DNA of 24,486 bases from a virus (taxonomy: Duplodnaviria; Heunggongvirae; Uroviricota; Caudoviricetes). Location of the stretch: positions 1 through 24,486 of the IMG/VR virus record IMGVR_UViG_2529292836_000011. One strand, written 5' to 3'. Position 1 is the stretch's first letter; each line of letters starts with the position of its first letter. Shown one piece after another: positions 12,296 through 22,877 of the stretch. A program made the position numbers and the translations under genes. The notes beneath the pieces were generated by a model that was not told where the DNA came from, made no database searches, and saw nothing but the letters and a program-made list of their open reading frames with translations.

Positions 12296-13747
12296 ATGGC
12301 TACGTGGCAACAGGGTATTAATTCTGGTGGTTTTCTGGCTGGCATTGGTGCGCAAAACGAGAATGCGCCAAAGGCAAGCGACATTAACGCAACGCTTGGT
12401 CTGATCCGCGAAAACAATGAACTGGCTCGATCAGGTGCAAATAACGTTGCTCTGACAGGTCTTCGTGGTCTGGCTGGAGTTGCTGATATTTATAAGCAGC
12501 AGCAAAAGCAGGAGCGTAAAGCGGCATTCCAGAAAGGTTATGCGGATGCTTATGCGTCCGGCGACAGGGAGCAGATGCGTAATCTTATTACAGCATTCCC
12601 CGAAGAGTTTGAGGAAGTCCGTAAAGGCATGGGGTATGTCGATGACGCCCAGCGGGATGATTTTGGCAATCTGGCGCTTAAGGCTCAGGTCGCTTCGTCG
12701 CTTGGTCCGGGTGCATTTGGCAGGTTCATGATGGATAACGAAAAGGAGATGCGTCGTTTAGGTATCCCTCCAGAAACTATTGCGGAAATGCAGGTTAATG
12801 ACCCGCAGGGCTTCCAGCACTTCGCAGGTAATCTGGCACTATTTTCTCTCGGTCATGAGAAGTATTTCGATATCAAAGATCAAATGGAAGGTCGGGATAT
12901 TGAGCGTGGCAAGTTGGCAGAGACGATTCGCAGCAATAAAGCTGGGGAAGGTTTAAAGGCGCAAAGCATTGCTGTTAGCCGTGAAAACTCCCTGCGCACT
13001 GCTGGAGGTGCTGTTCCTGCATCTGTTAAAGAATATCAATATTTCAACAGCCTGTCTCCAGAGCAACAAAAGACATATCTTCGTGTTCGAGGTCGTCCTG
13101 ATGCTGGCGGGGAGAATGTTGTGCAACTGGCAGATGGCAGAACGGTAACGGTTGGTAGGAAGCTTCACGGCGCTGGTGCTAATGCGTTCTACGAAGGAAT
13201 AGACAACGAGGGCAATATGATTCGCGTCCCCGCCAGTTCTATTGCTGCTCCGGCTACATCGGCAGCTAATGCACAGAATTACGAAATGAAGAAAGATCTT
13301 GATGCAATTTCTGGCGCATCAATTGACGATCTTGGCTTCATGACAGGTATTACAGGTTCTTCAGGTTCTTTTGCTCTTGGTGCAGATATTCGTAGCAGGG
13401 CATCTGGTGTTGAGGAGAGGAGGCTATACAACGCTGCACAGCGAATCATGGGCAAAATGCAAAATCAGGGGATTGCAGCAGCCCGAGATATGGGGGCATC
13501 TGGCATCAACACCGAAGCAGAGGCCAATAGGTATTTTCAGGGTATGCCAAAGCCTGATTTCTCAAGTCCTGAAGCGCTGCAACAATCAATGCGCGACATT
13601 CAGCAATATACCGACAATTACAACCAGCAATATAACGTTAATGTTGGTAATGGCGGGAAGAAATCATCAAGGCAACAGCCAGCTACTCAGCAATCAGCAG
13701 GAGGTAGCTACACGTCAAAATCAGGCATTCAATTTACGGTGGAATGA
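12296..13747 (+). CDS. Ejection protein, gp20-like
   Basis: 483 aa in the gp20 position (P22 gp20 is about 471 aa). Confidence 0.7.
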
Positions 13748-15759
13748 TGAAAGTAACTGCAAATGGTAAGACATTTACCTTTCCTGATGGTACGAGCACG
13801 GAAGATATTGGGTCCGCCATTGATGAGTATTTTGCTGGTCAGTCAGCGCCAACACAACAAGGTGTTCAGCAATCGCCAGCAGACAACTCACTTGCATCAG
13901 GATATGCACAGCTTGCCACTCAGCAGAAGGAAGGACTAGATCGCTCTGCTGAGCAAGGGGCTGTTTTAGGTGCTGCAATGCGCGATGCCGTTACCGGTGA
14001 AAGCCGAATGACACCAGAAATGGAGAGACTGCAAAATGTTGGGGCTGCCCCTGAGTTGAACTCACTAAGCATGGATGCCCTGAAGGCTGGATGGTCTCAA
14101 CTTTTCGGCTCCGACGCGTCTCAGGAAAAGATTCTTCAGAGTATGGGGGCGAAATTAAGGCAGGATGAGAAGGGTAACACTATCGTTTCCCTGCCATCCG
14201 GTGATTATGCCCTGAACAAGCCAGGTTTATCACCGCAAGACCTGACTTCGTTTCTTGCTAATGCGTTAGCGTTCACACCAGCGGGCAGGGCTGGAACGGT
14301 GCTTGGTGCCATAGGGAAATCAGCTGCTACAGATTTAGCACTACAGGGTGGCACCAGCCTTGCTGGCGGAGAAGATATTGATCCTGCACAAACGGTAATT
14401 TCTGCTGGCATTGGTGGTGTTGGCAAGGGGCTGGAAAATACAGTTAGTGCGGTTTCCAGGGCTGTTCGCGGTGAGATGTCACCGGAAGCAAAGGCTGCTG
14501 TCGATTTTGCGTCGGAAAGAAACCTGCCGTTAATGACCAGTGACACGCTGAAAGATAAAACCTTTATGCAGAGTCAGGCTCAGACATTAGGCGAAAGAGT
14601 TCCTTTTTTTGGAACCGGTAAGAATCGGCTGAATCAACAACAAGCACGAGAAAATTTAGTCAGAACATTTAGCGATGGTCTGGGTGGCATTTCTGATAAA
14701 CAGCTTTATGAATCTGCGACTAAAGGGCAACAAAAATTCATTGAGGCAGCAGGAAAGCGATATAACCGCATAATTGACGCTATGGGGGATACCCCTGTCG
14801 ATCTCTCAAACACGGTAAAAGCTATCGACAATCAGATTGCCGTGTTAAGCCGCCCGGGCAAATCTCAGGATAGAGCCGCGGTAAAAGTCTTGCAGCAATT
14901 TAAAGACGATATCACCAGCGGACCCAATGACCTGCGTCTGGCGAGAGAAAACAGAACTGACCTTCGAAAGCGGTTCATGAATTCAAACGAGACTGTTGAT
15001 AAAGACACGCTCCAGAAAGCCAGCGATATTGTCTACAAGGCATATACAGCGGATATGAAAAAAGCAGTATCCCAAAAACTAGGCTCAGAAGAAGCTGCCA
15101 ATATGTCTAGGGTTGATCGCTCATGGGCTAGATTCAATGACATGATGGGAAGAACGCGCGTTCAAAAGGCAATAGCCAGCGGCAAGGCTACACCTGAGGA
15201 TGTAACAAAACTCGTTTTTAGCCAAAACCCATCAGAACGTTCTCAGCTTTACAGGCTTCTGGATGACAATGGTAGGCAAAACGCACGAGCAGCCATAGTT
15301 CAGAATGCTGTAGATAAGGCGACTGATCCGTCTGGAAATATTAGTGTTGAAAAGTTTATTAATGCGTTACACCGGAACAGGAAGCAATCAGCAACTTTCT
15401 TTAAAGGCGTACATGGAAAGGAACTGGACGGCGTTATTAAATACCTCAACGATACAAGACACGCGGCAAAAGCGAACGTTCAAAACTTAAATGGTCAGCA
15501 GCTTTATGGATTGTTAGTTGGTGGTGGCATCATAAACGCAGCAGTATTAGCGGGGATGCTAAAAACGGCTGCGTTTGTTGTTCCTGCTGCTGGTGTCGTA
15601 GGAGGAGCTGCGAAGGCATACGAAAGCCCTGTTATACGAAATGCCTTGTTACGTCTGGCAAATACGCCAAAAGGTAGCACAGCATATGACAGAGCGATCA
15701 GTACGGTCACACAATCGCTCACCAGAGTCGCACAGGCATCACAAAAAGAAGCTCAATAA
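13744..15759 (+). CDS. Ejection protein, gp16-like
   Basis: 671 aa in the gp16 position, ATGA overlap with the upstream gene, hydrophobic Gly-rich segment near the C-terminus. Confidence 0.7.
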
Positions 15760-15776
15760 CTGGCAGCCACGGATGG

Positions 15777-16127
15777 CTAATTTTTATTCTTTGATCTCGT
15801 CCACAGGTAAAGAAGAGCAATGGCAAGACAGGAAACAGAGAATAGATAACCTACCTCATATGGTGCGCCAAAAAAATTAGCTATTGATACGGGCAAAAAA
15901 GCCGAAGCGATCAGAATTGAAAGGCAAAAAATAAGCCCAGTAACATAGTTTATTAAACTCTTAAATGAGAAACGTTTTGCTTGATTTACGGTCTCAGCGA
16001 GTGATCGCTTAACGATGGATAAAAGAAAATAGATGGCGACAGTAGCTAATGCCCCTTTCCACCAGTCTGGATATAGTTTTGCGACAATCAGCCCAAGGAA
16101 AACCATGATGACAGACTGAGCATTCAC
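15777..16127 (-). CDS. Small multi-pass inner-membrane protein (possible superinfection-exclusion moron)
   Basis: About 117 aa from a GTG preceded by AAGGAGG (5-nt spacer), with three to four hydrophobic helices. AT-rich. The ORF-track start at 16202 adds a non-hydrophobic extension. Convergent with the gp16-like gene. Confidence 0.55.
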   Translation of the reverse strand: MNAQSVIMVFLGLIVAKLYPDWWKGALATVAIYFLLSIVKRSLAETVNQAKRFSFKSLINYVTGLIFCLSILIASAFLPVSIANFFGAPYEVGYLFSVSCLAIALLYLWTRSKNKN

Positions 16128-16192
16128 ACCAACCTCCTTAGTTTTGCTCAGGATACCAGATGATAATGTGTAGTTGGAGTAGCGCGGTTGTA

Positions 16193-16282
16193 ATGCAAGC
16201 ATTTTGTTTTGGTTTTATGCTTGCTTGTATGTGTGTACAGTGTATATAATGCAAGCATACATCACAATAAAGGTGCTTGCAT
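16193..16282 (+). promoter_or_regulatory. Divergent promoter region with two copies of a palindromic operator (half-site ATGCAAGCAT, 14-bp spacer)
   Basis: ATGCAAGCAT at 16193-16202 pairs with inverted ATGCTTGC at 16217-16224. ATGCAAGCAT at 16249-16258 pairs with GTGCTTGCAT at 16273-16282. A TATAAT at 16245-16250 overlaps the second operator. Confidence 0.5.
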
Positions 16283-16283
16283 T

Positions 16284-17276
16284 ATGACTGAAAAGAAAAG
16301 TGGCGAAGGGAAAGCTAAGGGCGGTATCGCTCGCGCAAAGTCGCTGACTAAAGAGCAGCGTTCTGAAATAGCAAAGAAAGCAGCGGCTGCAAGATGGAAG
16401 GATAAACCATTAATTGCTACGCATAAGGGATCGTTCCAGCATGAATTCGGGATTGATGTTGAGTGCTATGTGTTAAATGATGATAACAAAACTGCCGTTA
16501 TTAGCCAGAGAGGCATGGGAGAAGCGATTGGTCTTGGCGAAGGTGGCAGCAGGTTGCCAAAGTTTATTCAGGGGAAAACTATTTCTCAGTATATCGGGCA
16601 TGAATTAAGGGCAAAACTTGAAAATCCTCTTATTTTTCAATACAAACAGGCGGGCACGAACACTCCAGCTAATCCTGTAATACATGGCTACGATGTAACA
16701 ATATTAATTGATTTATGTCGAGCAATCTCTAATGCTAAAGCTGAAGGTAAGTTGCTTTCCAGTCAGGAAGGGATTGCTAAGCAAGCCAGAATCATTATTG
16801 ATGCATCAGCCAAGGCGGGCATTCAGGGGCTTGTTTATGCTTTGGCAGGGTATGACAGAACAAAAGAAGAGGTAATTCAAGCATATAAGCGATATGTTGC
16901 TGAAGAGGCTCGTGAGTATGAAAGAGAGTTCACCCCTGAACTTTATGAGCATTGGTATCGTCTGTATGGTATAGACAAACCAGTTAGAGGGCGACCATGG
17001 GCGTTTAAATATCTTACGATAGATCACATTTATTACCCATTAGCCAGAAGTGAAGGAAAGGTATTTAATTTAGCAAAAACGTCAAAAGAAGAAAAAGGCA
17101 GCAAAAACGATAAAATACACCAGTTTTTATCAGAGGTTGGAGTTAAGGCTCTTAGAACCCAAATAGGTAAGGTTACTGGTATTGCAATGGTTTCTGATAC
17201 TCGAGAAGAGTATGAGAAATACATAGATGAAAAGGTTATTGGACAAAGAACCATAGACTTAAAAGATAAAGAATAA
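16284..17276 (+). CDS. Hypothetical 331-aa protein with a basic N-terminal tail (possibly P63C-domain / anti-repressor-like family)
   Basis: ATG at 16284 preceded by AAAGGTG. N-terminal KGGIARAKSLTKEQRSEIAKKAAAARW motif. Followed by a strong terminator. The ORF-track start at 16209 would run through the promoter and operators. Family assignment is tentative. Confidence 0.7.
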   Translation: MTEKKSGEGKAKGGIARAKSLTKEQRSEIAKKAAAARWKDKPLIATHKGSFQHEFGIDVECYVLNDDNKTAVISQRGMGEAIGLGEGGSRLPKFIQGKTISQYIGHELRAKLENPLIFQYKQAGTNTPANPVIHGYDVTILIDLCRAISNAKAEGKLLSSQEGIAKQARIIIDASAKAGIQGLVYALAGYDRTKEEVIQAYKRYVAEEAREYEREFTPELYEHWYRLYGIDKPVRGRPWAFKYLTIDHIYYPLARSEGKVFNLAKTSKEEKGSKNDKIHQFLSEVGVKALRTQIGKVTGIAMVSDTREEYEKYIDEKVIGQRTIDLKDKE

Positions 17277-17580: not shown

Positions 17581-18117
17581 TCAAACAACCCACCAGTTTG
17601 CCTGATTGGATACCAGCCTTGCAGTTTTTATGGAATTAATTATGCCATGCTCAAGAGCCTTGTTAGCATCCAAAATGGTCGAGTCTGCTATCAGGGATGC
17701 CCACCTAATATGGGTTCCGATGTCGATATTGAACGTCTCAACGAAGCGATCAAGATCGTTATCGAGGCATTTCCCGTACTCTCTCAATCTGGCATGGTCG
17801 GCGGCTGGGGAGGCAAAGCACCATAATAGAGGATGTAACAGGAATCTTGATAATGGGTTTGCGAAACGTTCTGAGCCAGCCAGGAAAACGATATTAGCTA
17901 TGGATTCAACATTGCTTATGTTGTGAGTTCTAACGGTAACAGGGAGTGACTTAAGAAAGTTATACGCAGTAAAGCCAGCGGCAGTTTCCCCTCCCTGACT
18001 TGATATATGGATATTTAATTCAGTTGCGCCTTGAGATAATGCGGTGAGACAGTGGTTCTGAAGTTGCCCAACAGTGGCAGTGTTAACGGGGCATAAGAAA
18101 TGAATTGTGTGCAGCAT
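17581..18117 (-). CDS. ClpP-like (peptidase S14-fold) protein, N-terminally truncated; translationally coupled to mnt
   Basis: Ungapped match to the recalled ClpP core from the GG motif to the active-site Ser (ISSQGG for INSPGG; VESIAN for AASMGA). His-box RFANPLSRFLLHP for RFCLPNSRVMIHQP. The Asp position reads GIINSI for GLVDSI. Its ATG overlaps the mnt stop (TAATG). Confidence 0.5.
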   Translation of the reverse strand: MLHTIHFLCPVNTATVGQLQNHCLTALSQGATELNIHISSQGGETAAGFTAYNFLKSLPVTVRTHNISNVESIANIVFLAGSERFANPLSRFLLHPLLWCFASPAADHARLREYGKCLDNDLDRFVETFNIDIGTHIRWASLIADSTILDANKALEHGIINSIKTARLVSNQANWWVV

Positions 18118-18365
18118 TATTTTTCATCCTTACCATACATGGTCTTTAGCGTCTCAAGCAGCGCCTCTTTGAATTTGTCAGCTTCTTGCTGAGCAAATGA
18201 CTCAACTGACTTTGGCGACCTATCTTCATCAATCGCGGCTTGCAAAATCATGACGATCTCGGAGTTAACAGAGCGACCATTTTTTGATGCTCTGACAGCA
18301 AGAGCCTCGCGTAAAGATTCAGGGATTCTTACCGTAGTTGGAGAAATTGACACACCCTTTGCCAT
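18117..18365 (-). CDS. mnt: Mnt-like ribbon-helix-helix repressor
   Basis: 82 aa from the ATG at 18365 (AAGGTG upstream). RASKNGRSVNSEIVMILQAAI matches the Arc/Mnt signature (recalled P22 Mnt: RAEANGRSMNSELLQIVQDAL); C-terminus TLKTMYGK versus TLKDLYKK. Confidence 0.8.
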   Translation of the reverse strand: MAKGVSISPTTVRIPESLREALAVRASKNGRSVNSEIVMILQAAIDEDRSPKSVESFAQQEADKFKEALLETLKTMYGKDEK

Positions 18366-18479
18366 ATCACACCTTTGGTATTCAATTTGATAGCAAAGTG
18401 TATGCAAAAAAATTTTGACTAGATATACTCACTTTGATATCTTTTGTATTCGAAAAGAGTTGTTTGCGTGGAGGGTAAC
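18366..18479 (+). promoter_or_regulatory. Divergent mnt/arc promoter-operator region (immI-like)
   Basis: AT-rich 114-bp gap between divergent RHH repressor genes, containing TTGACT and TATACT/TATCTT-like hexamers. By analogy to P22 Pmnt/Pant; the operators were not mapped. Confidence 0.45.
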
Positions 18480-19867: not shown

Positions 19868-22138
19868 ATGACAGACATTACAGCCAATGTGATCGTATCG
19901 ATGCCTTCGCAACTATTCACTATGGCTCGTTCTTTTAAAGCCGTAGCCAATGGCAAAATTTATATCGGTAAAATTGACACTGACCCGGTAAATCCTGAAA
20001 ACCGGATTCAGGTTTATGTGGAGAATGAAGACGGTTCTCACGTTCCTGTATCTCAACCAATCATCATTAACGCTGCCGGATATCCGGTATATAACGGACA
20101 GATTGCCAAATTCGTTACCGTGCAAGGCCATTCTATGGCTGTTTATGATGCATATGGTGCGCAGCAGTTCTATTTTCCGAATGTGCTGAAGTATGACCCT
20201 GATCAACTGCGATCTGAACTGGAGGGTCCTGGTGGAGCTGGATTTGTCGGAGGATTAGCAAAGCCTGTTACTTGGAGTGGTTTTGCCGGAGGTGCTGATC
20301 CTACTGGTGTGCTTGATTCAACTGCGGCGTTTCTGGCTGCCAATGCCACGAAAAGTAAAATTTATATCCCAGCGGGCACATACAAACTAACCCAAGATGT
20401 AGTGTCTGATCCCCTTACATCATGGGAAATGGAGATGGGGGTTTCATTTATAGGTGGATACTGGCTGCGTCAGGTACCTTGGTTGTCAGGTGTAGGTAAT
20501 AATATATTTTACTATCTCGAAAGACACTGTAGAAATACATTTATTGCGCCACCTGACGGCATAGGTGTTTACGGGTCGGCACACACTGCCCTCGGTGGTG
20601 CAGGCGGTGCTGCATTAGGGGTGGCAGGTACTGCGATAAACGATGATACATCTGGCTCACGATCAAGTGTGTGGGCCTTGTACGGTTCAGCTATACGCAA
20701 TGCAGGAACAATAGGAGCAAGTCACGGTCTTGAACTTGATATAGCAAACAGGGGGAATGAGCGTGAAATGTATCCTAATTCAATGTTCCCCAACGGTCAG
20801 ACTGACGCATTATGGTTAGGCTCAGGTGGTGAATTAACCCAAGCTGGAGAAGTGTTGAATGCTGCATCGGCAGCAATTGGAATAATAGCTAACGACAAAA
20901 CTGCTGGGAAAACAGCGCGCTTTCTGAAGGGCATCGTATTTGGCAGTAATAGCCTTAAAGGAACCGATGGAGAATCAACAGGTCAAGGTGTGGCAATTGC
21001 TTTTGGTAATAGGCACTCAATGACCTGGTACAACAATTTAAATCAGAAAACTTCTGAAATACTCTCTGTTTTGGAGGATGCAACCAGATCAACCAGAATG
21101 TTATTTAGTGATAATGGCGTAGTATTTACACGATTATCGTCTGGGTTGCCTATATTTGCCATAGAGTCTGGGCCTACAGTTCCTGCCAATTATCTATCCA
21201 TGCGCTCGCATACAGAATCTAATGCTCCTGCTGTTGGCGTTGCTGGAAGCGATAAAGATATTCATTTGAGGCTATCTCCAAAAGGGGATGGCATTGTAAT
21301 AGTAGACTCATCTATTGCACCATTATCACAGAACAGTAACAGCACGGTCGGAACTGCTGGTCGTGTGTGGTCTGGTGGATTCACTCAAACAGCCTTTACC
21401 GTTACTTCAGATGAGCGAGCTAAAACTGCACCTCTTGAAATCACTGATACAATACTTGACGCATGGTCAGAGGTTGACTTCGTTCAATTTCAGTATCTTG
21501 ACAGAACAGAAGAAAAAGGGGAAGACGGAGCTCGTTGGCATTTTGGCGTAATAGCTCAACGTGCAAAGGAGGCGTTTGAACGTCATGGGCTTGATGTGCA
21601 CCGATTTGGATTCTTTTGCTTTGACGAGTGGGATGATCAATATACTAAGGTTCAGACAAACGAAGGTGTAATGGTTACTAAAACTCGCATAACAACAGTT
21701 CCAGTGCAGGTTACTAAAACTCGAATTGTAAGCAAACCAGTGATGGTTACTGAGAGTCGTCAGGTATTAAAGGATGAGGTACTGGAAGACGGAACACGGA
21801 TTAAACGAGTAGTGAATGAAGAGTATCAGACTCCAAAAATGGAAATGATACCTGTTCTTAATGAAGATGGTTCACCTTTTGCGCAAAATCCATTCGTAAG
21901 CGTTCCTGTAGTTGAAGATGTAGAAGAGGAGTACATCGAGACAGAGTTTCAAGAAGTAGAAGAAGAGTATGAAGAAGAGGCAGAACCAGAATATGAAGAT
22001 ATTCTGGTCACTCCGGCAGGCTCACGTTATGGTATCCGTTATGAAGAGGCGTTAGTCCTTGAAGCTGCATTACAACGCAGGAATTACCAAAAAGCATTAT
22101 CTAGAATTGAAATGATAGAAATGAGAGAAAATATATAA
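19868..22138 (+). CDS. Tailspike: P22-type N-terminal head-binding domain, divergent receptor-binding domain, C-terminal S74-type intramolecular chaperone domain
   Basis: N-terminal ~115 aa ([11 protein letters not shown]...[21 protein letters not shown]...[12 protein letters not shown]...NVLKYDPDQ) near-match the recalled P22 gp9 N-terminus. The centre is AT-richer and Gly/Ser/Ala-rich. The C-terminus carries TSDERAKT and [13 protein letters not shown] motifs typical of autocleaving chaperone domains. Confidence 0.9.
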
Positions 22139-22232: not shown

Positions 22233-22877
22233 TTATTTTTCTGAAGCGCTTCTGTTTTCTAATATTTTTAATGGGATTTCAATATTAGACGTCCCGAAAG
22301 ATGAACCAATCAAATTCCACAGCTCATTAGGTTTTAACTTCCACCATTCAGTCTTTAATAATCTATCAATTATTTCTGGAGGATGTCTGTATCTAATAAC
22401 CTTAGCTGGTACTCCTCCTACAATTGCATATGGCGGTACATCTTTAGTAACAACAGAGCCTGCGGCAATGATGGCACCAGTTCCAATATTAACCCCTGCT
22501 AAAATTGTACATCTAGAACCAATCCATACATCATGCCCTATGATAACATCAAGATCTTTCCCAAATATGTCAGAGCTCGCCTGCCATATATGTCCTGTAG
22601 GGTTAAATCCATTTCTTAACTCAGGATCTACAACCATATTTAGCGGGTAACTTGTTAATGTATTTGTCGCATGACGACCTTGTCTTCCAACAAAAATCAC
22701 AACGTCGAAAGCTATAGAGCAATATTCACCAATTGAAAGAATTCGCTTGTCGTCATGCATCCCAATCTCAATTCTTGGTTTTCCGTATGTGTATTCACCA
22801 CACTGAATAGTCAAGAAATCTCTGCTGTAATTAGATCTTAAATAAGAAGCAGTTGATGCTGGGCCAGGAAAATTCAT
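22233..22877 (-). CDS. Hexapeptide-repeat acetyltransferase of the XAT class (Vat/CatB-like)
   Basis: 214 aa; C-terminal IGHDVWIGSRCTILAGVNIGTGAIIAAGSVVTKDVPPYAIVGGVPAKVIRYRHPPEIIDRLLKTEWWKL closely parallels recalled CatB/Vat sequences (IGNDVWIG...GDGA...VTKDV.PYAI.GG.PAK.IK.RF...I..L....WWNW). Markedly AT-rich compared with the structural genes. Confidence 0.85.
   Translation of the reverse strand: MNFPGPASTASYLRSNYSRDFLTIQCGEYTYGKPRIEIGMHDDKRILSIGEYCSIAFDVVIFVGRQGRHATNTLTSYPLNMVVDPELRNGFNPTGHIWQASSDIFGKDLDVIIGHDVWIGSRCTILAGVNIGTGAIIAAGSVVTKDVPPYAIVGGVPAKVIRYRHPPEIIDRLLKTEWWKLKPNELWNLIGSSFGTSNIEIPLKILENRSASEK

Follow-up and report, generated by a model that had tools for sequence, protein, structure and literature searches.

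The minus strand of the window, the 24,486-nt stretch of viral DNA analyzed here, carries at positions 15777–16127 a genuine gene (the target), more than a chance open reading frame. Its product is a candidate exclusion protein, analogous but not homologous to SieA of phage P22, that may block the entry of DNA from related phages; we favor this reading tentatively, at somewhat short of an even chance. An earlier note on this DNA had proposed such a role from the position of the gene. The positional analogy to sieA is now strengthened, homology to SieA is refuted, and the exclusion function we infer by analogy. The target occupies the sieA slot of the block of genes known as the ant moron and, as we picture it, is a coding cassette swapped in behind the leader, ribosome-binding site and GTG of P22 sieA. 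The prophage would express it into the inner membrane of the lysogen, where the protein would get in the way of DNA delivery when P22-like phages superinfect the cell, for instance at the gp20/gp16 conduit or at a host partner of that conduit.

The gene and its predicted product

With phiv205-1, CUS-3 and Kapi1 as its best matches, the window represents the late-gene half of an E. coli phage or prophage of P22-like (Lederbergvirus) type. Its genes run in the order terminase, portal, coat, tail, ejection genes 7, 20 and 16, a variable block, tailspike, hexapeptide acyltransferase and integrase. The acyltransferase gene (22233–22877, minus strand; hexapeptide repeats, PF00132) lies between tailspike and integrase, and CUS-3, which has an annotated heptanucleotide repeat tract, carries a neuO-labelled feature in the corresponding region. 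The target reading frame runs from 16127 to 15777 and has 117 codons counting the TAG stop; the earlier note had thus placed the gene correctly, while its protein of about 117 residues is one of 116. The AAGGAGG Shine-Dalgarno sequence that it reported is present at 16139–16133 on the minus strand, 5 nt before the in-frame GTG (16127–16125), and is invariant in P22 sieA, Emek orf129, 611R6 and S88. The description of the gene as AT-rich is true but modest (39.6% GC vs. 47.3% for the whole window), and both reported orientations hold, convergent with the last ejection gene and divergent from the neighbor on the other side. The convergent gp16-type DNA ejection gene (13744–15759, plus strand, 671 aa) matches phrog_770, phrog_29117 and phrog_29864 at E ≤ 1e-172, and its counterpart in the S88 genome is annotated as P22-gp16 family. 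Only 17 bp separate its 3′ end (15759) from that of the target (15777). The divergent neighbor encodes a P63C-domain protein of 330 aa (16284–17276, plus strand; PF10546, E 1.2e-8; phrog_2384, E 4.5e-103). Low GC content combined with an orientation against the late operon is typical of a moron, which argues for the exclusion reading. Between the convergent genes, a consensus scan placed a terminator-like hairpin, AGCCACGGATGGCT followed by a T-run (15765–15778, plus strand), that overlaps the target TAG stop; with one site found in the scan against 0.9 expected, it is weak evidence by itself. On the minus strand the hairpin has no T-run, and transcription of the target may for that reason continue into gene 16 as antisense RNA.

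Public and mechanical calls differ over where the protein begins. Besides the GTG at 16127, there is a RefSeq (PGAP) call of 109 aa, WP_011703616.1, from ATG 16106, and a mechanical ORF of 141 aa from ATG 16202. Three independent lines favor the GTG. DNA similarity to four other loci of the same slot, P22 sieA among them, stops exactly there. Relatives of 37–40% identity, which begin MN(A/G/Y)Q, align an ATG with it, and the Yersinia and Edwardsiella copies keep the GTG, with VNAQ or VNGQ. On these lines the RefSeq call is probably too short, and the 141-aa ORF is probably too long. In 611R6, the annotation of the hkcB-like gene starts at an ATG farther upstream and reads through the shared leader (MLALQPRYSNYTLSSGILLKTKEVGV...), the same artefact as the 141-aa ORF of the window; in public records, the start codons of both the target (RefSeq) and this 611R6 gene look mis-annotated. 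A literature search for WP_011703616 found nothing.

A Kyte-Doolittle profile of the target has four hydrophobic segments, and AlphaFold2 gives four helices (residues 3–18, 22–46, 55–85 and 90–115) at a mean pLDDT of only 65 (two runs gave 56 and 65). The three to four transmembrane helices expected earlier thus come out as four by both methods. Clusters of Lys and Arg give the loop at residues 40–57 a net charge of +4 and the C-terminal tail one of +3, and by the positive-inside rule the N-terminus, this loop and the C-terminus are predicted to be cytoplasmic. Predicted to face the periplasm are only two short turns, YPDWW and GAPYE, of ~5–7 residues each. We infer from this an inner-membrane protein with four predicted transmembrane helices. 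The hydrophobic helices and positive-inside charges speak for exclusion. Against it count the low confidence of the structure model, fold searches that came back empty (with Foldseek, neither PDB nor BFVD gave a match at E ≤ 0.001, and PDB yielded none by sequence either) and periplasmic loops so short that they offer little surface to an incoming conduit.

When the target and its relatives were scanned against Pfam, PHROGs, NCBIfam and PADLOC, only sub-threshold matches typical of hydrophobic sequences were returned, none to a PHROG or PADLOC family at a meaningful E-value. Phage_holin_3_6 (PF07332, E 0.063) was one of these, another weak match was to LydA-type holin models (E 0.47), and a protein of ~120 aa with four transmembrane helices does resemble GtrA and some holins. 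It could accordingly be asked whether the target acts in lysis or in cell-surface modification, as a holin, antiholin or GtrA-like flippase. However, both holin matches fall far short of significance, that to PF07332 reaching 13.8 bits against a cutoff of 28.4; no target-family member matches a holin family above its cutoff, and none of 10 members matches PF04138 (GtrA) at E ≤ 1. Moreover, the target lies away from the lysis region and is transcribed against the late operon, the lysis genes of related phages lie at the far left of the matched region, and no gtrB or gtrC adjoins the target, whose neighbors are gp16 and the P63C-domain gene. We regard a lysis or surface-modification role as highly improbable.

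A shared leader and its cassettes

The target is preceded by a conserved leader that alignments find in front of other genes of the slot (16125–16165, minus strand, including -10-like elements, ribosome-binding site and start codon). The leader sequence TGGTATCCTGnnCAAAACTAAGGAGGTTGGTGTG is identical in five places, namely the window, P22 sieA, Emek orf129, the 611R6 hkcB-like gene and the S88 prophage, and after the GTG the coding sequences of these five loci are wholly divergent. Emek is 100% identical to the window across 16123–16165, and the type-B sieA of the HS1 prophage has much, but only part, of the leader (ACACATTATCATCcGGTgTtCTGctCAAAACTAAGGAG). To the left of the leader the window is 99.6% identical to the prophages of S88, APEC O1 and ATCC 11775, ending near 16164; on the other side, its identity to phage 611R6 is 98% from 16125 onward. 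Judged from these alignments, the window is a mosaic, and the leader is its junction.

The leader contains two -10-like elements, TATCAT (16165–16160) and TGgTATCCT (16158–16150), and the annotated putative PsieA promoter of P22 ends at the position aligned with TATCAT. A consensus scan found no canonical sigma-70 -35/-10 pair on the minus strand at the target; for this reason a promoter role of the leader is putative, and the exclusion reading is weakened. Farther upstream, in the divergent intergenic region, a pattern search found four ATGCWWGCAT-like sites (16193–16282; two perfect, two with one mismatch). Four of the five such matches in the window thus fall within 90 bp, at spacings of 24, 32 and 24 bp. 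The four combine into a long imperfect inverted repeat, and this accounts for the sub-threshold miRNA-like matches that were all an Rfam scan of the region returned. These sites are probably operators of the divergent P63C-domain gene, and the one nearest the target abuts its predicted -35 position. Upstream of the leader, S88-type prophages diverge in sequence from the window, so control by these sites would not be intrinsic to the target.

How many different genes use this leader? The exact 22-nt sequence CAAAACTAAGGAGGTTGGTGTG, which comprises the ribosome-binding site and GTG, was found in at least 119 viral contigs of IMG/VR, and among the matches listed 117 complete ORFs beginning at its GTG were sorted into families. 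It precedes at least 12 unrelated gene families, and similarity ends at the start codon. The most frequent are the hkcB type (at least 27 loci) and the Emek orf129 type (at least 24), followed by a 62-aa protein with two hydrophobic segments (at least 12), SieA type A and a 75-aa protein with several hydrophobic segments (at least 9 each), a second type with N-terminal anchor and coiled coil, 109 aa long (at least 8), and the N7 ORF14 type (at least 6). The target family has at least 5 loci, as do a 149-aa protein with one hydrophobic segment, a 99-aa protein with a possible signal peptide and a 140-aa protein with neither a hydrophobic segment nor an obvious signal peptide. A 68-aa protein with an N-terminal hydrophobic segment has at least 2. 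By an automated count, 10 of the 12 families among the matches listed have a hydrophobic membrane or signal segment, and the 99-aa family looks like an eleventh, as its start resembles a signal peptide. This predominance suggests that the slot is one for action at the cell envelope, which favors the exclusion reading.

Position alone does not prove exclusion, because at least 12 unrelated families share the identical leader. SieA is the only one of them with a known function, which weakens the case for the target. The target might instead be a prophage-expressed membrane protein of some other benefit to host or phage that does not block DNA entry, such as an ion or solute channel, a stress or colonization factor, a membrane toxin, an abortive-infection effector or a modulator of a host membrane protein. 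The very different architectures in the slot, one without a hydrophobic segment, fit such a role, as do the minimal periplasmic exposure of the target and its lack of homology to any exclusion protein. Ant morons have also been described as having non-identical, unstudied functions by Villafane et al. (2008; PMC2629481), who give no function to their unique genes. On the other side, the slot's only characterized occupants are two exclusion proteins, SieA types A and B (Leavitt et al., 2024; PMC10883804), the target adjoins the ejection-protein genes, and no toxin, channel or defense family matches it either. We consider some other benefit a distinct possibility, only slightly less likely than exclusion.

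The same paper (PMC2629481) describes the ant-moron block between genes 16 and 9 as unusually variable, with only P22's version studied, and names the APEC-1 prophage of E. coli APEC O1, a strain that carries the target gene, among the six-gene types; the part drawn on here contains no description of a shared leader ending at the start codon. In the window, the ant moron consists of the target, the P63C-domain gene, a ClpP-like gene, Arc/Mnt-like genes and ant. The target has the features of a moron: its presence is patchy among collinear relatives, it brings a ribosome-binding site and leader of its own, and it is low in GC and oriented opposite to the late operon, on the minus strand. An Arc/Mnt-like ribbon-helix-helix gene (18117–18407, minus strand) is followed immediately downstream, with a 1-base overlap, by the ClpP-like protease gene (17581–18117, minus strand; PF00574, E 2e-11); the pair, an unusual passenger for this region, is also present in S88, ATCC 11775 and phiv205-1. 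More speculatively, the leader with its -10-like element, AAGGAGG and GTG might serve P22-like phages as a fixed docking point for exchanging unrelated cassettes of envelope proteins, recombination breakpoints falling at the start codon. The slot would then be a hot spot for blocking entry and the target family a new non-SieA exclusion class present in ~4% of complete E. coli genomes; taken as a whole, we think this unlikely. One leader in front of a dozen unrelated, mostly envelope-associated cassettes does provide a list of candidate exclusion genes.

Distribution, gp16 neighbor and selection

The target family is small: a search of 5.8 billion proteins yielded 24 members, and one of 1.84 billion yielded 7 cluster representatives. 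None has a name, and where a source is named it is Escherichia, Salmonella, Yersinia or Edwardsiella. Searches of 50,697 phage records with tblastn and megablast found no copy of the target, which is absent from CUS-3, phiv205-1, 611R6 and N7. The gene is present in 229 of 5,426 complete E. coli genomes (227 match at least 80% of it), and could thereby affect the susceptibility of the carrier strains to P22-like phages. Carriers include the type strain ATCC 11775, the extra-intestinal pathogens S88 and APEC O1, and the asymptomatic-bacteriuria strain 83972. An allele at least 99% identical to the target occurs in 59 genomes, and in the two of these examined, S88 and ATCC 11775, it lies in prophages that retain, in the region shown, a complete set of tail, ejection and ant genes, and in S88 the tailspike gene as well. 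These two prophages have the same gp16, but where the window has the P63C-domain gene to the right, they have a hypothetical gene and then a YafO-family toxin gene.

A second allele, ~93% identical, occurs in 167 genomes, and the two copies examined lie in decayed prophages. In strain 83972 the gp16 beside it is truncated; in an O111:H8 strain the target lies directly beside ykgL, with no gp16. In both, the target is annotated as an intact CDS, which favors the exclusion reading. As evidence of domestication, survival in decayed prophages is only weak, because neighboring phage genes have persisted in them as well. The decayed P22-like prophage is itself widespread among E. coli strains, 277 genomes matching at least 80% of a 3.3-kb stretch of it.

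The target family keeps its place beside gp16. In all five relatives whose neighbors were checked (37–87% identical to the target), the gene is convergent with a gp16 gene, as it is in the prophages of S88, ATCC 11775 and 83972, and this shared arrangement speaks for exclusion. The gp16 proteins next to the target-family members examined are 63–77% identical to that of the window, while those of P22, HS1, Emek and phiv205-1 are at most 31% identical to it and those of CUS-3 and 611R6 give no match. We asked whether this link is a sign of functional coupling, and rejected it. As a control, cassette family was cross-tabulated against gp16 type at 108 IMG/VR loci with the leader. Most cassette families track one gp16 type, and the gp16 type of the window occurs with the target at 5 loci and with the N7 ORF14 type at another 5. 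The link is not specific evidence, because cassette families in general behave in this way and because N7 carries the gp16 type of the window with another cassette; a general pattern for adjacent genes, it weakens the exclusion reading. Among sequenced phages this gp16 type is rare, only N7 and HZ41 reaching 70% identity and the rest at most 37%.

Across target alleles, dN/dS is 0.12–0.44, with 0.35–0.44 between close alleles and 0.12–0.15 against the Yersinia copy (dS ~1.2). Such ratios indicate that the target is under purifying selection, which again favors exclusion. In the family alignment L11, V15, K17-L-Y-P20, F53, Y61, G64-L65, F67, P79 and R111 are invariant. A skeptic could take the target for a spurious or decaying ORF without function, as its annotation is only "hypothetical protein", the confidence of its model is low and no family matches it. 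The low dN/dS at the distance of the Yersinia copy, a frame that is open and a start that is conserved in relatives of as little as 37% identity, and the strong, conserved ribosome-binding site leave this explanation scarcely credible.

Comparison with SieA and other membrane proteins

SieA is integral to the inner membrane, which it crosses with three transmembrane segments in type A and four in types B and C; the three types are ~25% identical to each other and have a conserved motif, FxRYPxEAxxFNK, in the cytoplasmic C-terminal part (Leavitt et al., 2024; PMC10883804). P22 sieA and HS1 sieA were each shown by experiment to be sufficient to exclude P22-like phages (PMC10883804). The earlier note had P22 SieA at the analogous position, and the correspondence proves close: P22 sieA (13336–13830, minus strand) is convergent with gene 16 and follows it by 22 bp, and its leader, Shine-Dalgarno sequence and GTG are the same as those of the target. 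In the window, the target (ending at 15777) likewise lies between the end of gp16 (15759) and the tailspike gene (19868–22138). That position, orientation and leader are shared with P22 sieA, and partly with HS1 sieA, argues for the exclusion reading, and the orientation of the target, like that of sieA, suggests expression from the prophage rather than from the late operon.

The likeness does not extend to the protein sequence. Where the earlier note called for a homology search against the SieA, SieB and Imm families, no similarity to SieA type A or B emerged, and nothing significant in Pfam, PHROGs, NCBIfam or PADLOC; this lack of similarity to any characterized exclusion protein or defense family weakens the exclusion reading. 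The target was rejected as a member of the SieA family. BLASTP against P22 SieA gave E 0.27. When a 10-member target profile was compared by hhalign with a profile of nine type A members, the probability was 0.27%, and with HS1 type B it was 0.08%. Of the families that represent SieA, PF26849 is matched by no target-family member, and phrog_7745, which detects HS1 type B at 6.5e-21, is not matched by the target even at E ≤ 10. The SieA motif is also absent: the target ends ...LLYLWTRSKNKN, with no RYP..EA..FNK stretch, and none appears in the family alignment. This comparison covered types A and B; Proteus phage Brookers, tried as an example of type C, holds a lipoprotein gene in the slot instead.

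Might the target still be a true SieA homologue, extremely diverged and shortened, a fourth "type"? The slot and leader are the same, types A, B and C are themselves only ~25% identical, and all are multi-pass membrane proteins. Yet neither profile comparison, BLASTP nor phrog_7745 links them, the motif is missing, and the target has 116 aa against 162–212 and a cytoplasmic loop of ~18 residues against ~50. We find such descent very unlikely. If the target is instead an analogous blocker, it matters for the mechanism: SieA, the only characterized gene of the slot, blocks the gp16/gp20 conduit in a way that is still unclear, and a second, unrelated and much smaller blocker under the same expression signals would offer a comparison from which the requirements for blocking P22-type DNA entry could be narrowed down.

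How, then, does the target compare with known systems? With SieA it has in common a multi-pass membrane protein (predicted for the target), a slot 17–22 bp after gene 16 and a leader, AAGGAGG and GTG identical to those of P22. It differs in being about a third shorter, with four closely packed helices whose spacing is unlike that of the SieA segments. The proteins of hkcB (HK620, CUS-3 and 611R6), Emek orf129 (Sf6 gp38-like) and N7 ORF14 share slot and leader with the target as well, and are small, uncharacterized proteins with an N-terminal hydrophobic segment; neither their sequences nor their architectures are related to those of the target. In HkcB a coiled coil accompanies one N-terminal membrane segment, and Emek orf129 has a signal peptide and a soluble domain; among the hkcB, Emek orf129 and target types, only the target has four predicted membrane helices. 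Beyond the P22-like phages, T4 Imm and HK97 gp15 are small membrane proteins that block phage DNA entry. The target would follow the same general logic, that of a small inner-membrane protein encoded by a phage or prophage, and differs from both in helix number and size.
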